Below the pieces are notes generated by a model. That model made no database searches. It saw only the letters and a program-made list of their open reading frames with translations, and was not told where the DNA came from. A stretch of DNA of 64,000 bases from NCBI GenBank assembly GCA_964534625.1, contig CAZHRF010000004.1, positions 52,841 to 116,840 on the forward strand. The letters are read 5' to 3'. This document shows positions 3,015-64,000 of this stretch, piece after piece; the stretch's first letter is position 1; each line of letters opens with the position of its first letter. The translations under genes were made by a program, and so were the position numbers. The stretch is from an uncultured archaeon. Its GTDB lineage: Archaea > Asgardarchaeota > Heimdallarchaeia > Heimdallarchaeales > Heimdallarchaeaceae.

Positions 3015-3166
3015 ATGATCTTGACACTTATCGCTCCCAGGTGTAACAACACTGGATACCTTGGTATTCTTGTGTTGTTCTCCTTTTATCACGTGTCCAG
3101 TTGGGTGAGGTGATACACTGGCGGGTGTATTGGGTTACGTACCCAGTTGTACCCAAAAGAACTCAT
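3015..3166 (-). mobile_element. Putative non-autonomous element or recombination site truncating the DUF1624-like gene
   Basis: GC-richer ~150 bp with several hairpins. Reverse complement of 3131-3166 matches 58490-58525 at 32/36. Confidence 0.5.
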
Positions 3167-52014: not shown

Positions 52015-53262
52015 CTATTTTTTAAATAATACAATTCGATTGGTATTGGTTCCAAAAGAATTATTGTCCACACCCCAAATATTAGCAGTTTTTGTGAATT
52101 TTTGTAAATTTATTATAATGCTTATAATATCAAATCCCGCATCTAATCCCAATGGAACTACATGTTCATCTAGTTTTATCTTTCCTTTTCTTACCTCGCC
52201 AACTTCAAATGCTACATATCCACCCTTACTGATTAATCTGTAAAATTCTTTAAATGCTTCGCCCATTATCTTCTTCCATTCATCTAGTTTTTTGGGTGTA
52301 GTTATTTTTTCTTCCACTTTTTTGATATCTATATTATTGAACCAGCACCTTAACCAGTTATCTTTAGAATACTGAACTACATCTAAGAAAGGAGGAGAAG
52401 TTACTAATAAGTCAACACTCTCGCTTTTGATTTTATCTTTAGTATAACGTGCATCTTTTGTTAGAAAAATTGATTTCTTACCAGCTTCCCGTAAATTGTT
52501 TTTCTTGGATCTTGTTACATCTCGCATTAGACTTTTAGATTTCTTAATTATTCTAGGTTTTATCTCTCTATATTCTGGTTTTTGCCCTCTTTTTTCATTT
52601 AATTTGTTCTGACGCTTTTGGGATACAGCTTGATTTGGAGGTAAAGTATAGACAGAAAAGAAACCCTTTGAATGTCCTGTTAGTCTATTGGTAGTCACCA
52701 TTCTAATCCATTTATCTATATAATCCTCTTCATTATTTTCTAAAGATGAGATGAGATACTTTTTCAAAGAAACTATTTCAGCTTCAGTTTTGGGATGATA
52801 GAACATAGATAGATCGATATTTGCTCGTTCTGAATAGTCAAAAGATATTTTGTTAAGTCTTCTCTTAATATCATCTAAATCTGGGCAAAAAAACCTAGGA
52901 TATGCTAGGATCTCACTTAAAGGGTTAATATCATTAGAAATAACATTACGACCTAGTAATCCCGCCTCAACAACGCTTGTCCCCCTTCCGCTAAATGGAT
53001 CATATACAACATCATCCTTATTTGTTAGTAATTTTATGAAAAAACGAGGCAATTCAGCTTTAAAACAAGCCCTATATGAAATTTCATGTATTGAGTTTGA
53101 TTGTCTTTGTTTGGATGTCCAATATTCATTAATAAACCGTTTGATTTCTTTGCCATCAATATTTATCGTATCCACTTTCGTAGGATTTTGCTGGTCAGTA
53201 CTAAAAAAGTGATCTAAATTAGTTTTAAGTGTATAATTTTTTAGATCATCATTATTTTTCAT
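52015..53262 (-). CDS. Orphan amino (N4-C/N6-A) DNA methyltransferase
   Basis: Motif I DPFSGRGT, motif IV TSPPF; no adjacent endonuclease. Confidence 0.88.
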   Translation of the reverse strand: MKNNDDLKNYTLKTNLDHFFSTDQQNPTKVDTINIDGKEIKRFINEYWTSKQRQSNSIHEISYRACFKAELPRFFIKLLTNKDDVVYDPFSGRGTSVVEAGLLGRNVISNDINPLSEILAYPRFFCPDLDDIKRRLNKISFDYSERANIDLSMFYHPKTEAEIVSLKKYLISSLENNEEDYIDKWIRMVTTNRLTGHSKGFFSVYTLPPNQAVSQKRQNKLNEKRGQKPEYREIKPRIIKKSKSLMRDVTRSKKNNLREAGKKSIFLTKDARYTKDKIKSESVDLLVTSPPFLDVVQYSKDNWLRCWFNNIDIKKVEEKITTPKKLDEWKKIMGEAFKEFYRLISKGGYVAFEVGEVRKGKIKLDEHVVPLGLDAGFDIISIIINLQKFTKTANIWGVDNNSFGTNTNRIVLFKK

Positions 53263-53338: not shown

Positions 53339-55300
53339 TTACCCTAAATATTTTTTGATGAATTCATCCCAGCTTAGGATCTCAACCCCGATTTTTCTTG
53401 CTTTCTCAAGTTTAGTTTTTCCAGGGTTCTCTCCATAAACTAGCAGATCTAACTTAGAACTGACCGATTGTTTCCACTCAAATCCTTGATTGACGCAAAA
53501 TTCTTCAACCTCTGTTTTAGTTTTACCTTCAATTTTCCCTGTAACATAAAGCGAAAGACCTTTGTTACTTTGCACTATTTCTTCAATTTCGGTTTCCTCT
53601 TTTTGAATACCTAAAAAGACATCTAAAGTTTTTTTTCTTTGCTTGATTTTCTGTTTGGAAGATTTTTCTGTTGGATAAAGTATTTTTCCTCCTTTTTCTA
53701 AGAAAGCTTCGATTTTTTCATTATGATTTATACCCCTTAAGATCTTTTCAGCAGTTATCTCAGATATGCCTTCGATTTTGCACAATTGCTCAATTGTCGT
53801 ATTCCGTAATTTCTCAATTGAGGAATAATGTTTTGCTAATGTTCGTCCCATCACTTTGCCTAACGATTCTACTCCCAAACCTGCCAAGAAAAGGTGAAAA
53901 GGTAATTCTTTTTTTTCTTGAATATTCGTATATATTTTTTGACCATTTTTACCCAGTAAATCTACGAGCTGATCCTTCTTTAATATATAAAGATCTGTAA
54001 AATCTTCTATCAATCCTTTTTCATATAATTTATCGATATTACGGTTTCCTAGACCGTCAATTTTGATTGTTTTAACAAAATAGTCTAATTCTGCTTTATC
54101 TCTTGCAGGACAAACTTCTCCCGTACAATAAGCATTTACCTCTCCTTTTTGTTTACGTACCTCACTTCCACAACTTGGGCATGTATCCGGGATAGGTGCA
54201 GTTCCTTTAGTCTGCTTATTCACCACTTCTTCTACTTTAGGGATAACATCACCTGATCTCACTACGTAAACCTCATCCCCAATATTCAAGTTTAATTCTT
54301 GTAAGAACTCTGCGTTGTGTAAAGTCACTCTGCTTATTTTTGCTCCAGATATAATAACTGGTTCGAGTTCAGCTACTGGTGTTAGAACAGATGTTCTTCC
54401 CACTTGCCATACAATATCCTTTATTGTGGTTATCTTCCCTTGACTCTCGAATTTCAAAGCTATTTGCCATTTTGGATGATGAGAAGTAACTCCGGCTGAA
54501 TTTCTATCTTCTACTCGGTTATATTTAAACACTAATCCGTCAATCTCAAAATCTAAAGTTGCCCTTTTCTTTTTAATGTCTTCGAATTTTTCCCTTATGA
54601 TTCTTTCTTCAGGATTCTCTATTAACTCAAAATCGGAAGTTTGAAAGCCCCATTCTTGTAATAAGTTGATTTTTTCCATTCCTGAAAGATTATCTCGCAT
54701 AAGATCCCATGCATATAACTTTAATTCTCGTTCTTCTAGCAATCGTGGGTCTTTTTGTTTAAGCGTTCCTACAGCTAGATTTCTAGGGTTACTATATTTT
54801 TCCTCTTCTTCTAATTCTTGATTTAATCTCTCAAATTCAGAAATCGTCATATATAGTTCTCCTCTTACTTCTTCTTCTGTTTCTTTTTCAGGTATATATT
54901 TAGGGATGTGTTGTATTTTCATTACATTAAGAGTAACATCTTCACCACTTCTTCCATTACCTCTAGTGGCAGCCAAATTTAACTTCCCATTTTTGTAAAC
55001 TAGTTTTAGAGACAAACCATCAACCTTATACCCCATGGTTAACTCTTTGTTATCTGCCCAAGAAATAACCTCAGTCACATCTTGAGCTTTTCTACAAGAC
55101 AACATAGGAGGATAATGCGGAACATCACCTTGTTCTCTTTTGCCTACAACATCTAATACCGGGTTATCAGGATCTAATCCTTTTAATTCCTCTTCTAAAT
55201 TATCATAGGCTTGATCTGATATTTCAGGATCACCATCGTAATATTTTTTCTTGTGATAAAGCAACAAACCTTCGAGTTCTTTAATTCTATCCATGGACAC
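53339..55300 (-). CDS. ligA: NAD+-dependent DNA ligase
   Basis: YYDGDPEISDQAYD, KVDG, ATRGNG, EVRGE, DGLVFK, RSGDVIP, Zn finger, HhH, BRCT. Confidence 0.96.
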   Translation of the reverse strand: MSMDRIKELEGLLLYHKKKYYDGDPEISDQAYDNLEEELKGLDPDNPVLDVVGKREQGDVPHYPPMLSCRKAQDVTEVISWADNKELTMGYKVDGLSLKLVYKNGKLNLAATRGNGRSGEDVTLNVMKIQHIPKYIPEKETEEEVRGELYMTISEFERLNQELEEEEKYSNPRNLAVGTLKQKDPRLLEERELKLYAWDLMRDNLSGMEKINLLQEWGFQTSDFELIENPEERIIREKFEDIKKKRATLDFEIDGLVFKYNRVEDRNSAGVTSHHPKWQIALKFESQGKITTIKDIVWQVGRTSVLTPVAELEPVIISGAKISRVTLHNAEFLQELNLNIGDEVYVVRSGDVIPKVEEVVNKQTKGTAPIPDTCPSCGSEVRKQKGEVNAYCTGEVCPARDKAELDYFVKTIKIDGLGNRNIDKLYEKGLIEDFTDLYILKKDQLVDLLGKNGQKIYTNIQEKKELPFHLFLAGLGVESLGKVMGRTLAKHYSSIEKLRNTTIEQLCKIEGISEITAEKILRGINHNEKIEAFLEKGGKILYPTEKSSKQKIKQRKKTLDVFLGIQKEETEIEEIVQSNKGLSLYVTGKIEGKTKTEVEEFCVNQGFEWKQSVSSKLDLLVYGENPGKTKLEKARKIGVEILSWDEFIKKYLG

Positions 55301-57069: not shown

Positions 57070-57621
57070 ATGGAGAAAGTACCCAGAACAGAGCAGATGG
57101 AAGTGGGAGAAAACAAAGCACTCGGGAAGCTTTGCCATCGGACAAAGAATCTCTATAATAGAGCAAACTACGTCATAAAACACACATGGAAGGAGGAAGG
57201 GAAATTGGTAGGATACAACACCTTGGCGAGAGAGTTAAAGACAGAAGAGTGCTATAAAGTGCTGCCAGCGCAAACCAGCCAACAGACACTCAAACTCCTA
57301 GGGAGGAACTGGAAAAGTTTCTTTCGAGCGTTAAAAGAGTACAGAAAAGAGCCAAAAAAGTTTCTAGGATGTCCTCGTCCTCCTGCCTATAAAGCTAAGA
57401 AGGGGCAAACTGTTGCTGTTTTTACCAATCAACAGGTGAACATTCGCAATGGATGGATAGTCTTTCCCCGGAAGGCTAATTTCAAGATACAAACACGTTT
57501 ATCTCCACAAACGGATATCAGAGAAGTACGAATCATTCCCCGCGGAGTAGGGTACACGGTGGAACTAGTCTACAAGAAAACCCTGAAAAACAAGAAACGA
57601 GGTAAGAAATTATTTCACTAA
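57070..57621 (+). pseudogene. tnpB: Truncated TnpB (IS200/IS605/IS607 OrfB), N-terminal part only
   Basis: LCHRTKNLYNRANY, LPAQTSQQTL, NWKSFF, PRPPAYK, EVRIIP...ELVY; stops before the RuvC-I IDLG motif. Confidence 0.88.
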
Positions 57622-58198: not shown

Positions 58199-58489
58199 TA
58201 TTGTTAAATTAGTATCTCAATATAAAATCTTGTTGTTTGAAGAAATTTACAATATAAAGCAATTCATTCTAAATTCAAATTTGATTTTCTTCTTTTATAA
58301 TACCTTTATTTTTTTCTCCCTTCTTGTGAAATAACGATTTTGAACCCATTTGTGTGTGCTTTTAGGAGATGTGAGCCAATCCATATCTGACATTGGATCT
58401 CATTTTAGATAACAATTTTAGCTTTAAAAAGCTTTGATGTGACAAAAAGTGGATAGACTATTCTAAAGTTATTATAGATACATGTTATG

Positions 58490-58525
58490 ATGAGTTCTTT
58501 TGGGTACTTTTGGGTACGTGACCCA
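58490..58525 (+). mobile_element. 36-bp motif (copy 2) at the left inversion breakpoint
   Basis: ATGAGTTCTTTTGGGTACTTTTGGGTACGTGACCCA, 32/36 identical to the reverse complement of 3131-3166. Confidence 0.6.
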
Positions 58526-58821
58526 TCAGAAGGCAGATCTTAGAATTATTAAACAAACAGGGTGCAGTTTCGTATACCGAATTATTAGAACATACAAATT
58601 TAAATTCCGGACCTTTGTATCATCATTTAAGAAAACTTGATCCCTTTATCTTTCAAACAGATGCCAAAAAATATACCTTAAATGAACAAGGTGAAAGGGC
58701 TATAGGTATACTTCGAACTAGTGAAATGGATCGAATACCCTTACAAGAAATTGAAGAGATTACTATCTTTAGTTTATTCGGTGTTTCTCTTGTTCCTCTA
58801 ATAAAATTTTTTGGACTATAA
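58522..58821 (+). pseudogene. 3' part of a split winged-helix (ArsR-like) regulator
   Basis: PIRRQILELLNKQGAVSYTELL...SGPLYHHLRKL...YTLNEQG, preceded by in-frame TGA and lacking a proper start. Confidence 0.8.
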
Positions 58822-58883
58822 ATTCTCTTCTTAACTTTTTCCTCCTTAAATATGAAAGTGAAAATATTTATTTTTAGATAGAT

Positions 58884-60026
58884 ATGGCTTCGAAATCAAA
58901 GAAAAAGGATGAACTTGAAGATTATTTAGACTCCATCGATGATCTCTCATCGTCAATGAAGAAACGCGTTCATACTGTTTTAACTAGTCAAGGCATTATT
59001 GACCCCCGGGGTATTGAAGCTTTAACCAAAGCTGAGTTAGAAGATTTACCAGGTATTTCTGAACGTACTGCTAATTATTTGAAAGAAAGTCCAACTGATA
59101 GCTCTTCAGATTCTCTTTTTATGTCTTTAGAAGAACGCGAGGAAGCTGAAAAAGAAATAGAAAGGATACGAACTGGATCTGAAGATTTGAATGAATTATT
59201 AGGTGGGGGTGTCCCCTTGGGTACATTTGTTGAATTTTATGGTAGCCCCCAATCAGGCAAGACTCAGATGTGTTACACGTTAGCAGTCAATGCTATTTTA
59301 CCTAAGAAATATGGTGGCTTAGGGAGTGGTGTTCTATGGCTTGATACTGAGGGATCTTTTAATTCTAGACGCCTTAAAAAAGTAATGTTTTATCACCAAT
59401 ATACTAACGGTTTGACAGATGCTAATATTGATTTTTCTCTCTTTAATGTTGCAGTTGCCAGAACCATAGATAAGATAGAGATGGCTTTAAAACAAGTAGG
59501 TCCGCTTATTGTTAAAAAGAATGTCAAATTATTAATTGTCGATAGTCTCATGGATCCCTTCAGAGCTGAATATGGTGGTCTCGGTCAGCTAGCTGACAGA
59601 CAAAAACATCTTAATAGATTATTGCATTCACTTATGCGTATCGCAGAGGCGTATAATTTAGCTGTTGTCTATACCAATCAAGTTATGGCCAATCCTGATC
59701 CTTTTGCAACAGCTATGGATAAAGTTATGCCTGTGGGAGGCTTTATTCTAGGTCATGCTTCTGACATACGTGTTTGGTTAAGACGTGCTACTTCTAAAGT
59801 TAAGAAAAAGCACAACTCTGTAAGCGGTAGAAGAGCAATGGTAACTGATTGCGGTTGGTTACCACAAGAAGAATGTCATGTCTCCTTAGGCCCTTTTGGT
59901 GTTTGTAATATTGATGAAGAAGAAGAGCATTACAAATTAGAAGAAAAATTAGGACTGAGCACAAAAAGATTAACTGATGATTTAAAAGAAGAAATATTAG
60001 AAGAAGATACAGAGGAGGAGGAATGA
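58884..60026 (+). CDS. radA: RadA/Rad51-family recombinase (divergent)
   Basis: N-terminal HhH (LPGISERTA), GSPQSGKTQ, DTEGSF, IVDSL, FRAEY...LADRQ, TNQVMANPD, GGFILGHAS. Confidence 0.88.
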   Translation: MASKSKKKDELEDYLDSIDDLSSSMKKRVHTVLTSQGIIDPRGIEALTKAELEDLPGISERTANYLKESPTDSSSDSLFMSLEEREEAEKEIERIRTGSEDLNELLGGGVPLGTFVEFYGSPQSGKTQMCYTLAVNAILPKKYGGLGSGVLWLDTEGSFNSRRLKKVMFYHQYTNGLTDANIDFSLFNVAVARTIDKIEMALKQVGPLIVKKNVKLLIVDSLMDPFRAEYGGLGQLADRQKHLNRLLHSLMRIAEAYNLAVVYTNQVMANPDPFATAMDKVMPVGGFILGHASDIRVWLRRATSKVKKKHNSVSGRRAMVTDCGWLPQEECHVSLGPFGVCNIDEEEEHYKLEEKLGLSTKRLTDDLKEEILEEDTEEEE

Positions 60027-60065
60027 AAAAATAAGGAAAAAAAGCCTTGTTAAGGATCACTTTGT

Positions 60066-61586
60066 TTAATTTTCGTTATTTTCGTTATTTTTGTTATTTT
60101 CGTTATTTTTGTTATTTTCGTTATTTTTGTTATTTTTTCTTGTTTTTTCTAATGATCCCGATCCTAAATCACTCATTCTCTCTTTATAGTCGAATTGATG
60201 ATAATCTATTTTTCGTTGTTCTCTTCCTCTTGCTATATTCTGTTGAACTCGGTCTAAATTATCAAACATAGATTTCTTTTTTTTGGCTCTTTTAATATCC
60301 TTTTCTTTATCCTTTGCTCGTTCTTTAAAGCTTAGTCTCCAGCGTATATATTCTTTTACCCCCATGCCATATTCTTGCATTTTAGCTTTAAGATCTATTG
60401 TCAAGGCGACACTATAACAAATAATCCAGAGGATAAAAAGAATTATCCTAGCAATAAGGATATTTTCTATTTCAACCACTGCAAGTATAGCTGAAAAGAA
60501 AGCGAAAGCAAAGATGGCCATTATTACGGGTAAGAAGAAAAGGAAATACAGAAATTCACTTATAAAATCCGCTATCGAGAAGCCTTTCTCCAGATAATAA
60601 GAGACTACTAGAGTCACAATTATATATGTTGCAAATGCTGAAATAAAAATAATTGAAACAATTTTCATAATAAAAAGAGTCTCCTCTGGCCCATCCCCAA
60701 AGAAAGCATATAAAATGAAAGCCAGTGCTACAAGAAATATAATACCCTCTCGTAATAAACGTTCTTTTGTGAAAGAAAGTGTTCTTTTTGGTTTTTCAAG
60801 TAGTTTTAGAGCTTGTTGTTCTTTATCTATTTCTTCTGGGGATAATAAATCTAACTTCTGTGCAGTAATAGTTGATTGTTTTTGTTTAGGAAGAATTTCT
60901 TTTTCTTGATCATAGCGTACCATCCAGCTCTGTTCAATTTGATGCGGTTTAATATTACGTTTTTTTATCCATGTGCGTATTTTTAATAAATCAGTTGTAA
61001 TCTTGATGCCTACTGCAACCATCAATAGAGATTCTATGAAAGTACTCAATGAAAAAACAATTCTCATTGTTTGATAATCTTGAGCGTGAGATGCTATACC
61101 TGTAACAATACTAATAATAAGCGTATAAAATGCAAATATCCCATATATTATCCCTCCTAGTTTTAGCTTTAAGAGAAAAGCTATTTTTTCCATCAATTTT
61201 TGCAATTTAAGAAAAGCAAATATTCTTCCAAATAAGATTATCATACCTGCTACTGCAGCAATAGCTGGCCACCCCAATAGAATTAGGTTAATAAGAGTAG
61301 CCATTCCAAAAGCAATTAACCACGTTCCGCCTTCTTTTCCAGCCTTTGTGACATGTTCAATAAAATATAATTCAGTGATCGCTTTAATACCAATACCAAT
61401 GGGTATCAGACTAGCTGCTGTTAAACCAAATATTAGATAACCATAGACAGGTTGAGTATAGCTCCACCCTTTGAAATATGAATCTATAATTTTCAATATA
61501 GCAGAAACAATATACAAGCATGTTCCAATAACTATTAATGCCGTATATTCATCTATTTTCTCTCTTTCCGCTTTCATTTTATTCAT
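60066..61586 (-). CDS. Hypothetical multi-pass membrane protein
   Basis: 506 aa, two TM clusters, basic C-terminus ending in NN(K/E) repeats. Confidence 0.75.
   Translation of the reverse strand: MNKMKAEREKIDEYTALIVIGTCLYIVSAILKIIDSYFKGWSYTQPVYGYLIFGLTAASLIPIGIGIKAITELYFIEHVTKAGKEGGTWLIAFGMATLINLILLGWPAIAAVAGMIILFGRIFAFLKLQKLMEKIAFLLKLKLGGIIYGIFAFYTLIISIVTGIASHAQDYQTMRIVFSLSTFIESLLMVAVGIKITTDLLKIRTWIKKRNIKPHQIEQSWMVRYDQEKEILPKQKQSTITAQKLDLLSPEEIDKEQQALKLLEKPKRTLSFTKERLLREGIIFLVALAFILYAFFGDGPEETLFIMKIVSIIFISAFATYIIVTLVVSYYLEKGFSIADFISEFLYFLFFLPVIMAIFAFAFFSAILAVVEIENILIARIILFILWIICYSVALTIDLKAKMQEYGMGVKEYIRWRLSFKERAKDKEKDIKRAKKKKSMFDNLDRVQQNIARGREQRKIDYHQFDYKERMSDLGSGSLEKTRKNNKNNENNKNNENNKNNENNEN
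60070..60135. repeat. 9-bp tandem repeat TTTT(C/T)GTTA, ~7 copies
   Basis: Read directly; encodes NNK/NNE on the minus strand. Confidence 0.93.
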
Positions 61587-61981
61587 GGAACAAAAAATTA
61601 AGACCTTTATAAATTCATACCATTTGAACAGAAGAAAGAAAAAGGATTGAGAGAAGAATAATGGTAAAGAAATGTCTCTTGAAAATTATGTATGAATACT
61701 ATACCCGTTCTTTTCAAGACCTTTCAAGATCTTCTGTGCATTCCAATCTAATTCATTTCCTCTAATCCATACCTCTAGTTTTGGTAGCTCAAGAACCTCC
61801 GAGAGGTGATTTTGTATCGTAACCAGTTAAGCTCTCTCCCGCCCATATGTTCAGGGTAATAAATGTATAGCAACAGTAGCTGAACCATCTTTGGTATATA
61901 CAACAAGAATACGACCACATGAATTATTATTTTTGAAATTTTTTTTCTAAAAGTCTAGATAGCAAAAGTTATTAGGTTTGG

Positions 61982-62269
61982 ATGGGGGTATACAACTTGA
62001 TAACCATGACTGAAGAAATCTCCCTTTCATTGTCATTACCTAAAGATATTCACCAAATAATACGAAGTAAGAATTTATCGAAAGATATCAAACTTTTACT
62101 AGCCTTAGAGTTATATAGAGAGGAAATTATTTCATTAGGTAAGGCTGCCGAAATCGCAGGTATAACAATTCGAGATCTTATGTATGAAATGAAAAAGCGC
62201 AATATTTGTTTCACTTATGATGAGGAAAGCTTTGAAAATGATTTGAATATTATTGGTGAAATCGTTTGA
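61982..62269 (+). CDS. UPF0175 family antitoxin
   Basis: LALELYREEIISLGKAAEIAGI...DEESFENDL. Confidence 0.88.
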   Translation: MGVYNLITMTEEISLSLSLPKDIHQIIRSKNLSKDIKLLLALELYREEIISLGKAAEIAGITIRDLMYEMKKRNICFTYDEESFENDLNIIGEIV

Positions 62270-62310
62270 TAGTGATTTCTAATTCAAGTCCTATTATCAA
62301 CTTTTACAAA
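62266..62310 (+). pseudogene. 5' remnant of a DUF3368 PIN-domain toxin
   Basis: TTGA overlap with the antitoxin stop; MIVISNSSPIINF is a typical DUF3368 start, and similarity is lost after ~14 codons. Confidence 0.7.
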
Positions 62311-62346
62311 AATTGTACCTATGTTATTAAGAACAAGATGATCACC

Positions 62347-62402
62347 ATGGGATGCGCTAAAGAACTAAATACATCAGTTTTTTCAATGCTCTTATGCTCC
62401 AT
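62347..62402 (-). pseudogene. 5' part of the split winged-helix regulator
   Basis: GAGGT SD, then MEHKSIEKTDVFSSLAHP; joins 58522+ in frame at CCCAT. Confidence 0.75.
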
Positions 62403-62763
62403 CAAATAACCTCAGATAAAATCAAATTCACGGGTCTATTTGTGAATGATTAGTATGTTAAAAGAGTTTTTTGTTTATTTTAAGATTTCTAATGTACTAC
62501 TGATTCACTATTCATTAATCATGAACCTGGGAAAACAGTCGTATATTCCATGTAATCGGGTAATGCTTGCAGTACCAGCTAGTAGGGTAAATTGGTCACA
62601 TACCCTAACTATCGTTCCGTCCCGGAGGTGAAACTTGATTAAAGTATGTTTGGAAAATATTTCTTTTCGTTTCTTCTTATATTTAAAAGTATATAAAAAA
62701 TTATTGTAGCCTAGCAAACTATTTATGGTGGTATAAATAATAGTATATCGGTGATATAAACTT

Positions 62764-64000
62764 ATGAAAATCCGTGTAAAAATCTCTCTTATTTTACTAG
62801 TCATTTTATGTTTAACTAATTTATTACCGTTATATTCAGCTTTAGCATTAAAAAATTCTAACATAGGTAAAAGTGAGGAAAAAGGAGTTAGTCATAAATT
62901 TGATAAAATCAAAGAGAATAATAAATGGAAAATTAATGAGATACCAGATATAAAAGAAAATAGCGATCTAAATCAGTTTGATGAAAGAAAAGAACAAAAA
63001 ATGGAACAAATAAATAGTAAAGAACCGCATAATGGAACATCTTATGAGAAAATTGAAGGGTTAAATGAGCTAATGGATGAAGATACGTTTGAATCTACAT
63101 GGGATACAGCAAGAACGAGTAGTGGATCAAGCGGACCTAATTATATAGCATTACCCTTGCAGTCTACTGGTACTTATGATTTTACCGTTGAGTGGGGAGA
63201 TAGTACGAAAAATAAAATAACTAGTTGGGATCAACCAGAAGCTACTCATTACTATGATTCAGCGGGTATTTATACTATAACAATTACGGGAACACTTGTA
63301 GGGTGGAGGTTCGCCAATGATGGGGATAGATTAAAAATACTGGAAATAGATCAATGGGGAAATATGAATCTGGGAAATGACGGAAGCTATTTCTATGGGT
63401 GCGAAAATCTTGTCCTTAATGCTCGTGATGCACCCAATTTAAGTAGTACAACTAATCTTAGTCGTACATTTAGTTATTGTGAAAACCTAGGTGATCAAGG
63501 AGACATGAACAGTTGGGATACCAGCGAAGTAACTAATATGAGTTGGATGTTCTTTGGGGCTGAAGATTTTAACCAACCTATAGATGCATGGGACACGGGC
63601 CAAGTAACCGACATGGTGTGTATGTTAGCTGGTCCGTGGGGAATGACGTCTTCTTTTAATCAACCTATTGGAAGCTGGAATACTAGTAGCGTCAACGATA
63701 TGAACGGTATGTTCGGTCAGGCTACTTCTTTTAATCAAGCTATTGGAAGCTGGAATACAAGTAGCGTCAAAGATATGAACGGTATGTTTTTACAAGCTCA
63801 TTCCTTCAACCAACCTATAGGTGCATGGGACACGAGCCAAGTAACCAATATGAGGTCTATGTTTTTCCTAGCTTATTCCTTCAACCAACCTATAGGTACA
63901 TGGGACACGAGCCAAGTAACCGATATGCATTTTATGTTTTCTGATGCTTATTCCTTCAACCAACCTATAGGTACATGGGACACGAGCCAAGTAACCGATA
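62764..64000 (+). CDS. BspA-family / DUF285 repeat surface protein (runs off window end)
   Basis: Signal peptide [22 protein letters not shown]...[12 protein letters not shown]-like domain, 25-aa FNQPIGxWDTSQVTxMxxMF repeats; no stop before 64000. Confidence 0.93.

Follow-up and report, generated by a model that had tools for sequence, protein, structure and literature searches.

The 64,000-nt stretch of DNA analyzed here, referred to as the window (positions 52,841 to 116,840 of contig CAZHRF010000004.1, assembly GCA_964534625.1), comes from an uncultured archaeon of the Heimdallarchaeaceae, and near its right end it carries a 3,824-bp inverted segment that separates the two parts of a gene for a winged helix-turn-helix (wHTH) protein with a Yip1-like membrane region. 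An earlier note on this DNA had read the arrangement as a site-specific inversion, either a fossil or a live switch of the regulator and of a neighboring radA gene. The features of the locus are collected in Table 1. Codons 1-18 of the wHTH gene lie on the minus strand (62402-62349) and are preceded by a GAGGT ribosome site (62413-62409), while the remainder of the wHTH domain is read from the plus strand, from 58522 onward. The pentamer CCCAT at the left edge of the segment recurs in inverted orientation at the right edge, with an inverted identity of exactly 5 bp, and flipping the DNA between the two pentamers gives one uninterrupted open reading frame (ORF) of 116 aa. The start fragment behind its ribosome site, the inverted pentamers and the reconstructed ORF had all been described in that note and were borne out.

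When the rejoined protein was compared with orthologs in related genomes, the alignment ran without a gap across the joint (46.8% over residues 8-115, E 4e-32), and the ortholog bit score rose from 102 before joining to 112 after it; the contiguous alignment to homologs that the reconstruction implied was thus obtained. In a chance control, the match of the stranded N-terminal piece to the ortholog N-termini was equalled by only 1 of 262,486 genomic 10-mers. The ORF is restored, yet it does not give an intact regulator. The wHTH orthologs are 274-304 aa in length (about 278) and consist of a DUF7347 domain followed by the Yip1-like membrane region; the restored product covers only the first 116 of these residues and ends where the orthologs run on for ~160 membrane residues. 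The missing membrane part was not found in the host assembly (3.37 Mb in 120 contigs, 89.8% complete). Since the rejoined protein lacks these ~160 residues, the wHTH gene is a pseudogene in either orientation.

Table 1. Coordinates of the features at the inverted locus and of a related element fragment (positions in the window; aa, amino acids; RE, right end).
Feature	Position	Strand	Remark
Ribosome site and codons 1-18 of the wHTH (DUF7347)-Yip1-like gene, outside the inversion	62349..62413	-
Codons 19-116 of the wHTH (DUF7347)-Yip1-like gene	58525..58821	+	Pseudogene in either orientation
Inverted segment	58525..62348	.	3,824 bp including both AT cores
Left crossover	58525..58526	.	AT core within CCCAT 58522-58526
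Right crossover	62347..62348	.	AT core within inverted CCCAT 62347-62351; crossed unbranched by Logan contigs L187 and L188
RE remnant of TnpB/omegaRNA element, 33 bp	58492..58524	-	Starts at a cryptic left-end-like internal site; longer copies run into the omegaRNA region
AT core of the remnant's true right end	58490..58491	.	AT follows 28 of 29 right ends genome-wide
5' part of clan-AA aspartic-protease-like relic	58444..58491	+	52-62% identity to three Asgard homologs
Continuation of protease-like relic	62287..62346	-	First 5 codons lengthen the homolog alignment when the remnant is removed
Intact RadA-like paralog, inversion passenger	58884..60026	+
506-aa membrane protein, no Pfam family, inversion passenger	60066..61586	-
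UPF0175 antitoxin-like gene, inversion passenger	61982..62269	+
PIN-like partner gene, first 11 codons, rest lost	62266..62298	+	Agrees in 9 of 11 residues with the intact partner of related genome G002
147-bp right-end fragment of the remnant's element family plus AT	3018..3166	+	5'-truncated at an internal AT

A second gene was cut at the same two places. If the segment is flipped and a 33-bp insert at the left junction is removed together with one AT, the left flank of the insert joins the inner sequence of the right junction in one frame. This rejoined frame, which resembles an aspartic protease, matches three Asgard proteins across the joint with 53-62% identity over 21-30 residues, and the homolog score increases on joining from 26.9 to 33.1 bits. 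The name clan-AA aspartic protease is a lead from the Atlas, in which the homologs of the relic lie close to that clan; the relic has DTC where the DTG motif is expected, and an in-frame TGA lies just upstream. Two genes are therefore rejoined by one and the same flip, the protease-like gene after its insert has been taken out. As both rejoin exactly, the exchange was reciprocal, a single event cut the two genes, and no bases were lost or gained at either joint. The empty-site sequence is CCATCA at both breakpoints. We concluded that the 3.8-kb inversion is real, exact and reciprocal.

An assembly artefact might be suspected from the repeat next to one of the joints and from the origin of the genome, a metagenome assembly in 120 contigs. 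We consider this explanation practically negligible. Both present junctions are carried by separately assembled Logan contigs with 99.97-100% identity to the window, the right junction is unique sequence, and a de Bruijn assembler is not misled by a 5-bp match. The misassembly that the earlier note had named as a refuter was looked for in this way, in runs that are microbial-mat metagenomes from one study and possibly the source of this DNA. In five runs the Logan contigs over the right junction are unbranched from 60107 to 63829, and the break of the contig at the left junction is explained by a 37-bp identity with a second copy of the insert. No flipped junctions were found among the Logan contigs, which drop rare variants.

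These contigs also bear on the suggestion of a live regulated switch that would toggle the wHTH regulator together with the promoter context of radA, which is hardly credible. The exact joints make the reaction reversible in principle, both wHTH halves are stop-free and the ribosome site is intact. Set against this are the shortness of the restored protein by ~160 residues, the mere 5 bp shared by the two sites, the unbranched contigs of the five runs over the right junction, and the absence of a recognized recombinase gene nearby among the ORFs scanned at 52-62 kb. Protein searches for the 116-aa or the full-length form returned only the window's own fragment, which is weak evidence, as the longer-protein search missed even known orthologs. 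In addition, the flipped gene is not radA itself. It scores 226.5 bits against a RadA cut-off of 259 (the PRK04301 equivalog), while the other three of the four RadA-like genes in the genome reach 329-448 bits, and it is best described as a divergent paralog. The gene order wHTH-radA is not conserved in relatives, where the RadA-like gene and the wHTH gene each have other neighbors. A sigma-70 promoter scan was uninformative because the host is an archaeon. We infer that the RadA-like gene is a mere passenger and that the event had no regulatory role. The paralog has altered Walker A and L2-region motifs and is conserved across the family at ~60% identity.

Regulated switches such as Hin/hix, Gin/gix, FimB-FimE/fimS and the shufflons use matched sites of 9-26 bp and a dedicated recombinase encoded nearby, and they yield functional products. 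The present locus resembles them in the exact reciprocal exchange and in having a gene that is whole one way and split the other way. It differs from them in its 5-bp match, which the longer inverted repeats found in this region do not include, in the lack of a recombinase recognized nearby, and in that both cut genes are dead either way. What stands of the earlier reading is a past, site-directed, reciprocal event, and what falls is the live switch. The suggestion that the recombinase acted in trans is likewise supported, both by the two exact gene rejoinings and by the coincidence of one breakpoint with the end of a mobile element.

This mobile element was recognized from the repeated motif at the left junction. 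The motif had been described as 36 bp long; it is a repeat, but its actual unit is 33 bp with an AT on either side. The left junction does lie at the end of the motif, and the crossover itself was placed at the AT (58525-6 and 62347-8). The 33 bp form the terminal part of the right end in a family of TnpB/omegaRNA elements, hold two TTTTGGGTAC motifs at a 10-bp spacing and, in longer copies, start at an internal CCGT-GGG, a mimic of the left-end junction CCAT-GGG. The remnant has a short hairpin, and it folds no better than shuffled sequences (z -1.2 to -1.4). An integron attC site or a CRISPR-type repeat was ruled out for the motif, which is a transposon end. An identical 33-bp unit is present at positions 125493-125525 of the same contig (14 kb away, 8.7 kb past the window end), also at a CCAT site, where it forms a clean 35-bp insert in an already fragmented alpha/beta-hydrolase-like frame. 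Such a unit would be unusually small if self-moving. On contig C49 (16064-16091) a 28-bp remnant of the same end is flanked by TA, not AT, a few codons into an apparent PIN-type gene start. Closer to the inversion, a decayed piece of the omegaRNA region of this family (62529-62582, 80% over 54 bp) lies ~130 bp upstream of the wHTH start codon.

For this family, at least 29 right and 11 left ends (about 40 in all) were counted in the genome, many of them at contig edges. The dinucleotide AT follows nearly every right end (Table 1) and is found at all 11 left ends, 10 of which are preceded by CCAT; as computed, CCAT makes up ~7.5% of AT sites on either strand. A complete gene-less copy is 566 bp in length. 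A sister subfamily, six copies of which start at an internal CCAT or AT, retains a 60-residue TnpB tail, and with this tail as query full-length elements were found in 17 of 30 same-family genomes; two genomes of the family are single contigs of 3.1 and 3.3 Mb. These full-length relatives encode a 490-505-aa TnpB and possess a conserved non-coding region and imperfect inverted ends around AT; their TnpB scores over the cut-off for PF07282 and below the cut-offs for both NCBIfam models, guided_TnpB and IS607_TnpB. The full-length copies examined all lacked tnpA. For the non-coding region of the element Rfam yielded no real match, end-pattern searches gave none in the genome or the metagenome contigs, and the right end had no DNA match in 40 relatives. 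The element ends form imperfect inverted repeats, which come close to perfection in some copies, and the first target base varies across the family. Empty sites are restored with one AT, although sequence alone cannot separate a shared 2-bp core from a 2-bp duplication. In each of the complete Heimdall genomes G004 and G007 there are 13-14 tnpB-only elements, which have CAT/AT junctions and short inverted ends that are nearly perfect; at 80-97% identity, these copies are not recent. Near position 925480 of contig C1 in G007, a gene-less omegaRNA element ends in CTCAT directly at the start of the Y1 tnpA of another IS605-type element.

Taken together, the locus is probably the fossil of a conservative inversion that happened once, at the remnant of a transposon end. 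In the sequence of events that we propose, an element of the TnpB/omegaRNA family, or its 33-bp derivative, sits at a CCAT site in the aspartic-protease-like gene, and the element would have been cut back to its last 33 bp at the cryptic left-end-like site. The remnant-side junction and a CCAT 3.8 kb away, within wHTH codons 18-19, were exchanged at AT, and neither joint lost or gained a base. The enzyme was presumably the transposase of the element, supplied in trans and probably using serine chemistry of the IS607 type. Since AT is self-complementary, both alignments of the sites can be ligated, of which one would delete the segment and the other invert it. In an alternative order the insertion would have occurred in the wHTH gene, followed by an exchange between the right end and the CCAT of the protease gene, with the same final sequence; insertion into the protease gene first fits the CCAT preference better. 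The location of a breakpoint on an element end, the consensus CCAT at the partner site and the exact rejoining of genes together favor an inversion made by a transposase. We estimate that a breakpoint would fall exactly on one of ~40 ends in 3.37 Mb with a chance of the order of 1e-4, and the CCAT at the site of the second remnant 14 kb away is in line with a CCAT target.

The inversion may instead have been made by the host: the inverted CCCAT pentamers could have guided replication template switching or microhomology-mediated repair, and the partly palindromic remnant would have been no more than a fragile site. The 5-bp inverted identity at both joints, the short hairpin in the remnant, several other deletion scars in the neighborhood and the lack of a cognate transposase would agree with this. 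We regard it as unlikely, though as a serious rival: the hairpin is no better than in shuffles, one joint falls exactly on the element's AT core with a consensus CCAT target as its partner, and repair less usually leaves joints that are, as both are here, perfect to the base.

Several points weigh against the proposed transposase-made inversion. No intact cognate transposase was found in the genome, whose only IS607 tnpA is broken (C3:106980-107315) and has a left end resembling the IS607 elements of relatives, not the AT-core family. Searches of the same 89.8%-complete genome gave no match to Y1, DDE_Tnp_1 (PF01609) or DDE_Tnp_4 (PF13359). The IS607 tnpA loci in relatives have other ends, and G004 and G007 encode no IS607 TnpA over the cut-off in spite of their 13-14 element copies each. 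The simplest order of events places the crossover on the cryptic side of the remnant, not at the true right-end core; a microhomology of 5 bp could equally guide host repair; and a single inversion was examined. The genome also encodes two intact serine recombinases of 262 aa (C4:23729-24514 and C56:10374-11162), whose catalytic domain is N-terminal and which are not tied to the element; most related genomes have similar genes for 240-285-aa serine recombinases, located apart from obvious mobile elements. These are possible host enzymes and candidates for action in trans.

The closest known counterpart of the element is the IS607 family (IS607, IS1535, ISC1926 and CboIStron; PMC6188088; PMC4058570; bioRxiv 10.1101/2023.11.20.567912), which like the present family has TnpB and a right-end RNA region. 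IS607-family members share a 2-bp core with their target and show little target specificity (PMC4058570); here a 2-bp core, AT, is common to the junctions at 28 of 29 right and all 11 left ends. In that family the ends contain short phased motifs, of which IS1535 has two close to its right end (PMC6188088); here, two short motifs ~10 bp apart stand near the right end, and motifs akin to them occur at the left end and in relatives. The IS607 target motif ends like the right end of the element, and non-matching cores are tolerated on integration (bioRxiv 10.1101/2023.11.20.567912); the present 4-base target motif also matches the right end in its last bases. In contrast, the core is usually GG in IS607 elements, most but not all of which end in GG (PMC6188088), and it is the self-complementary AT here; the present ends are closer to true inverted repeats; the serine TnpA of IS607 has an N-terminal wHTH, whereas the copies here contain no tnpA and no cognate serine transposase was found; and the product here is an inversion of host DNA, not an insertion. 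Judged by its junctions the element works like IS607, but we do not file it as a member of that family. Chen et al. pointed out that subunit rotation on a paired-end complex of the IS607 type would yield inversion, and left the mechanism of exchange open (PMC6188088). That the locus is a natural product of an IS607-like serine transposase with a self-complementary AT core is a tentative proposal, possible but well short of probable.

Other transposition systems were compared as well. Inversions adjacent to an insertion sequence (IS) are made by replicative elements (IS26, IS1) or by recombination between two IS copies. The present case is like these in that one breakpoint lies on an element end, the other is a target-like site at a distance of a few kb, and host genes are split; it is unlike them in that neither the element nor a new target was duplicated, no second copy lies at the far joint, and only a 33-bp remnant is left. 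IS200/IS605 elements, IS1341-like tnpB-only elements and PATEs share with the present family the tnpB-only or gene-less copies, the omegaRNA region, movement in trans and a right end in TCAT. IS200/IS605 ends, however, consist of a guide plus hairpin, whereas the ends here are symmetrical with phased motifs and their hairpin is no better than shuffles; the target tetranucleotide is fixed there and its first base variable here. The single-strand peel-and-paste chemistry of that group does not readily yield a reciprocal inversion. The Y1 transposase genes in G001, G005 and G007 belong to other elements. It might also be supposed that a DDE cut-and-paste or Y1 transposase with a 2-bp AT duplication cut one end and that the free flank was repaired onto the other arm via microhomology. 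The imperfect, in some copies nearly perfect, inverted repeats at the ends, the AT at both junctions, readable as a 2-bp duplication, and the abundance of DDE transposases in G004 and G007 point in this direction. We find the idea very improbable, given that the genome has no DDE_Tnp_1, DDE_Tnp_4 or Y1 match, that the ends lack the convincing hairpin and the fixed first target base of IS200/IS605, and that the element was not duplicated. An ISL2/IS5-type transposase with AT duplication was rejected on the absence of PF13359 and PF01609 matches in the genome. An Aloposon was also considered; the giant genes and tRNA integration by which it is defined (PMC8813620) were not seen here.

Besides the inversion, the locus carries several further scars. 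The PIN-like gene was considered as another gene split by the inversion, and rejoining across the left junction failed; a separate deletion cuts it after 11 codons. At 57070-57621 lies the 5' half of a different tnpB, whose N-terminal sequence is apparently shared by an intact copy of 425 aa on contig C42; the truncated gene adjoins a RelE/ParE toxin-antitoxin pair. A 9-bp tandem repeat at 60060-60145 encodes the Asn/Lys/Glu-rich C-terminal tail of the 506-aa membrane protein, and Logan contigs break there. Further to the left, a bacterial-type NAD-dependent DNA ligase gene (53339-55300) in this archaeal genome adjoins an N6/N4 DNA methyltransferase gene.

Inversions driven by insertion sequences are of a known kind, and the conservative form with a single remnant and an AT core is a variant; the literature searched gave no description of a natural inversion of this type. 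The locus is a clean scar record of an element-driven rearrangement, with exact joints, no duplication of the element and 33 bp left behind. It also warns that an inversion which splits genes close to repair genes of an Asgard genome can be the accidental work of a transposon. Should the cognate enzyme be found, the locus would supply the substrates for a direct test. If the proposed mechanism is true, such a transposase can invert host DNA conservatively between a 33-bp end remnant and any CCAT site, and the enzyme would be a candidate for a near-targetless invertase. Gene order in Heimdall-group genomes would then be open to constant shuffling by way of their many TnpB-element remnants.

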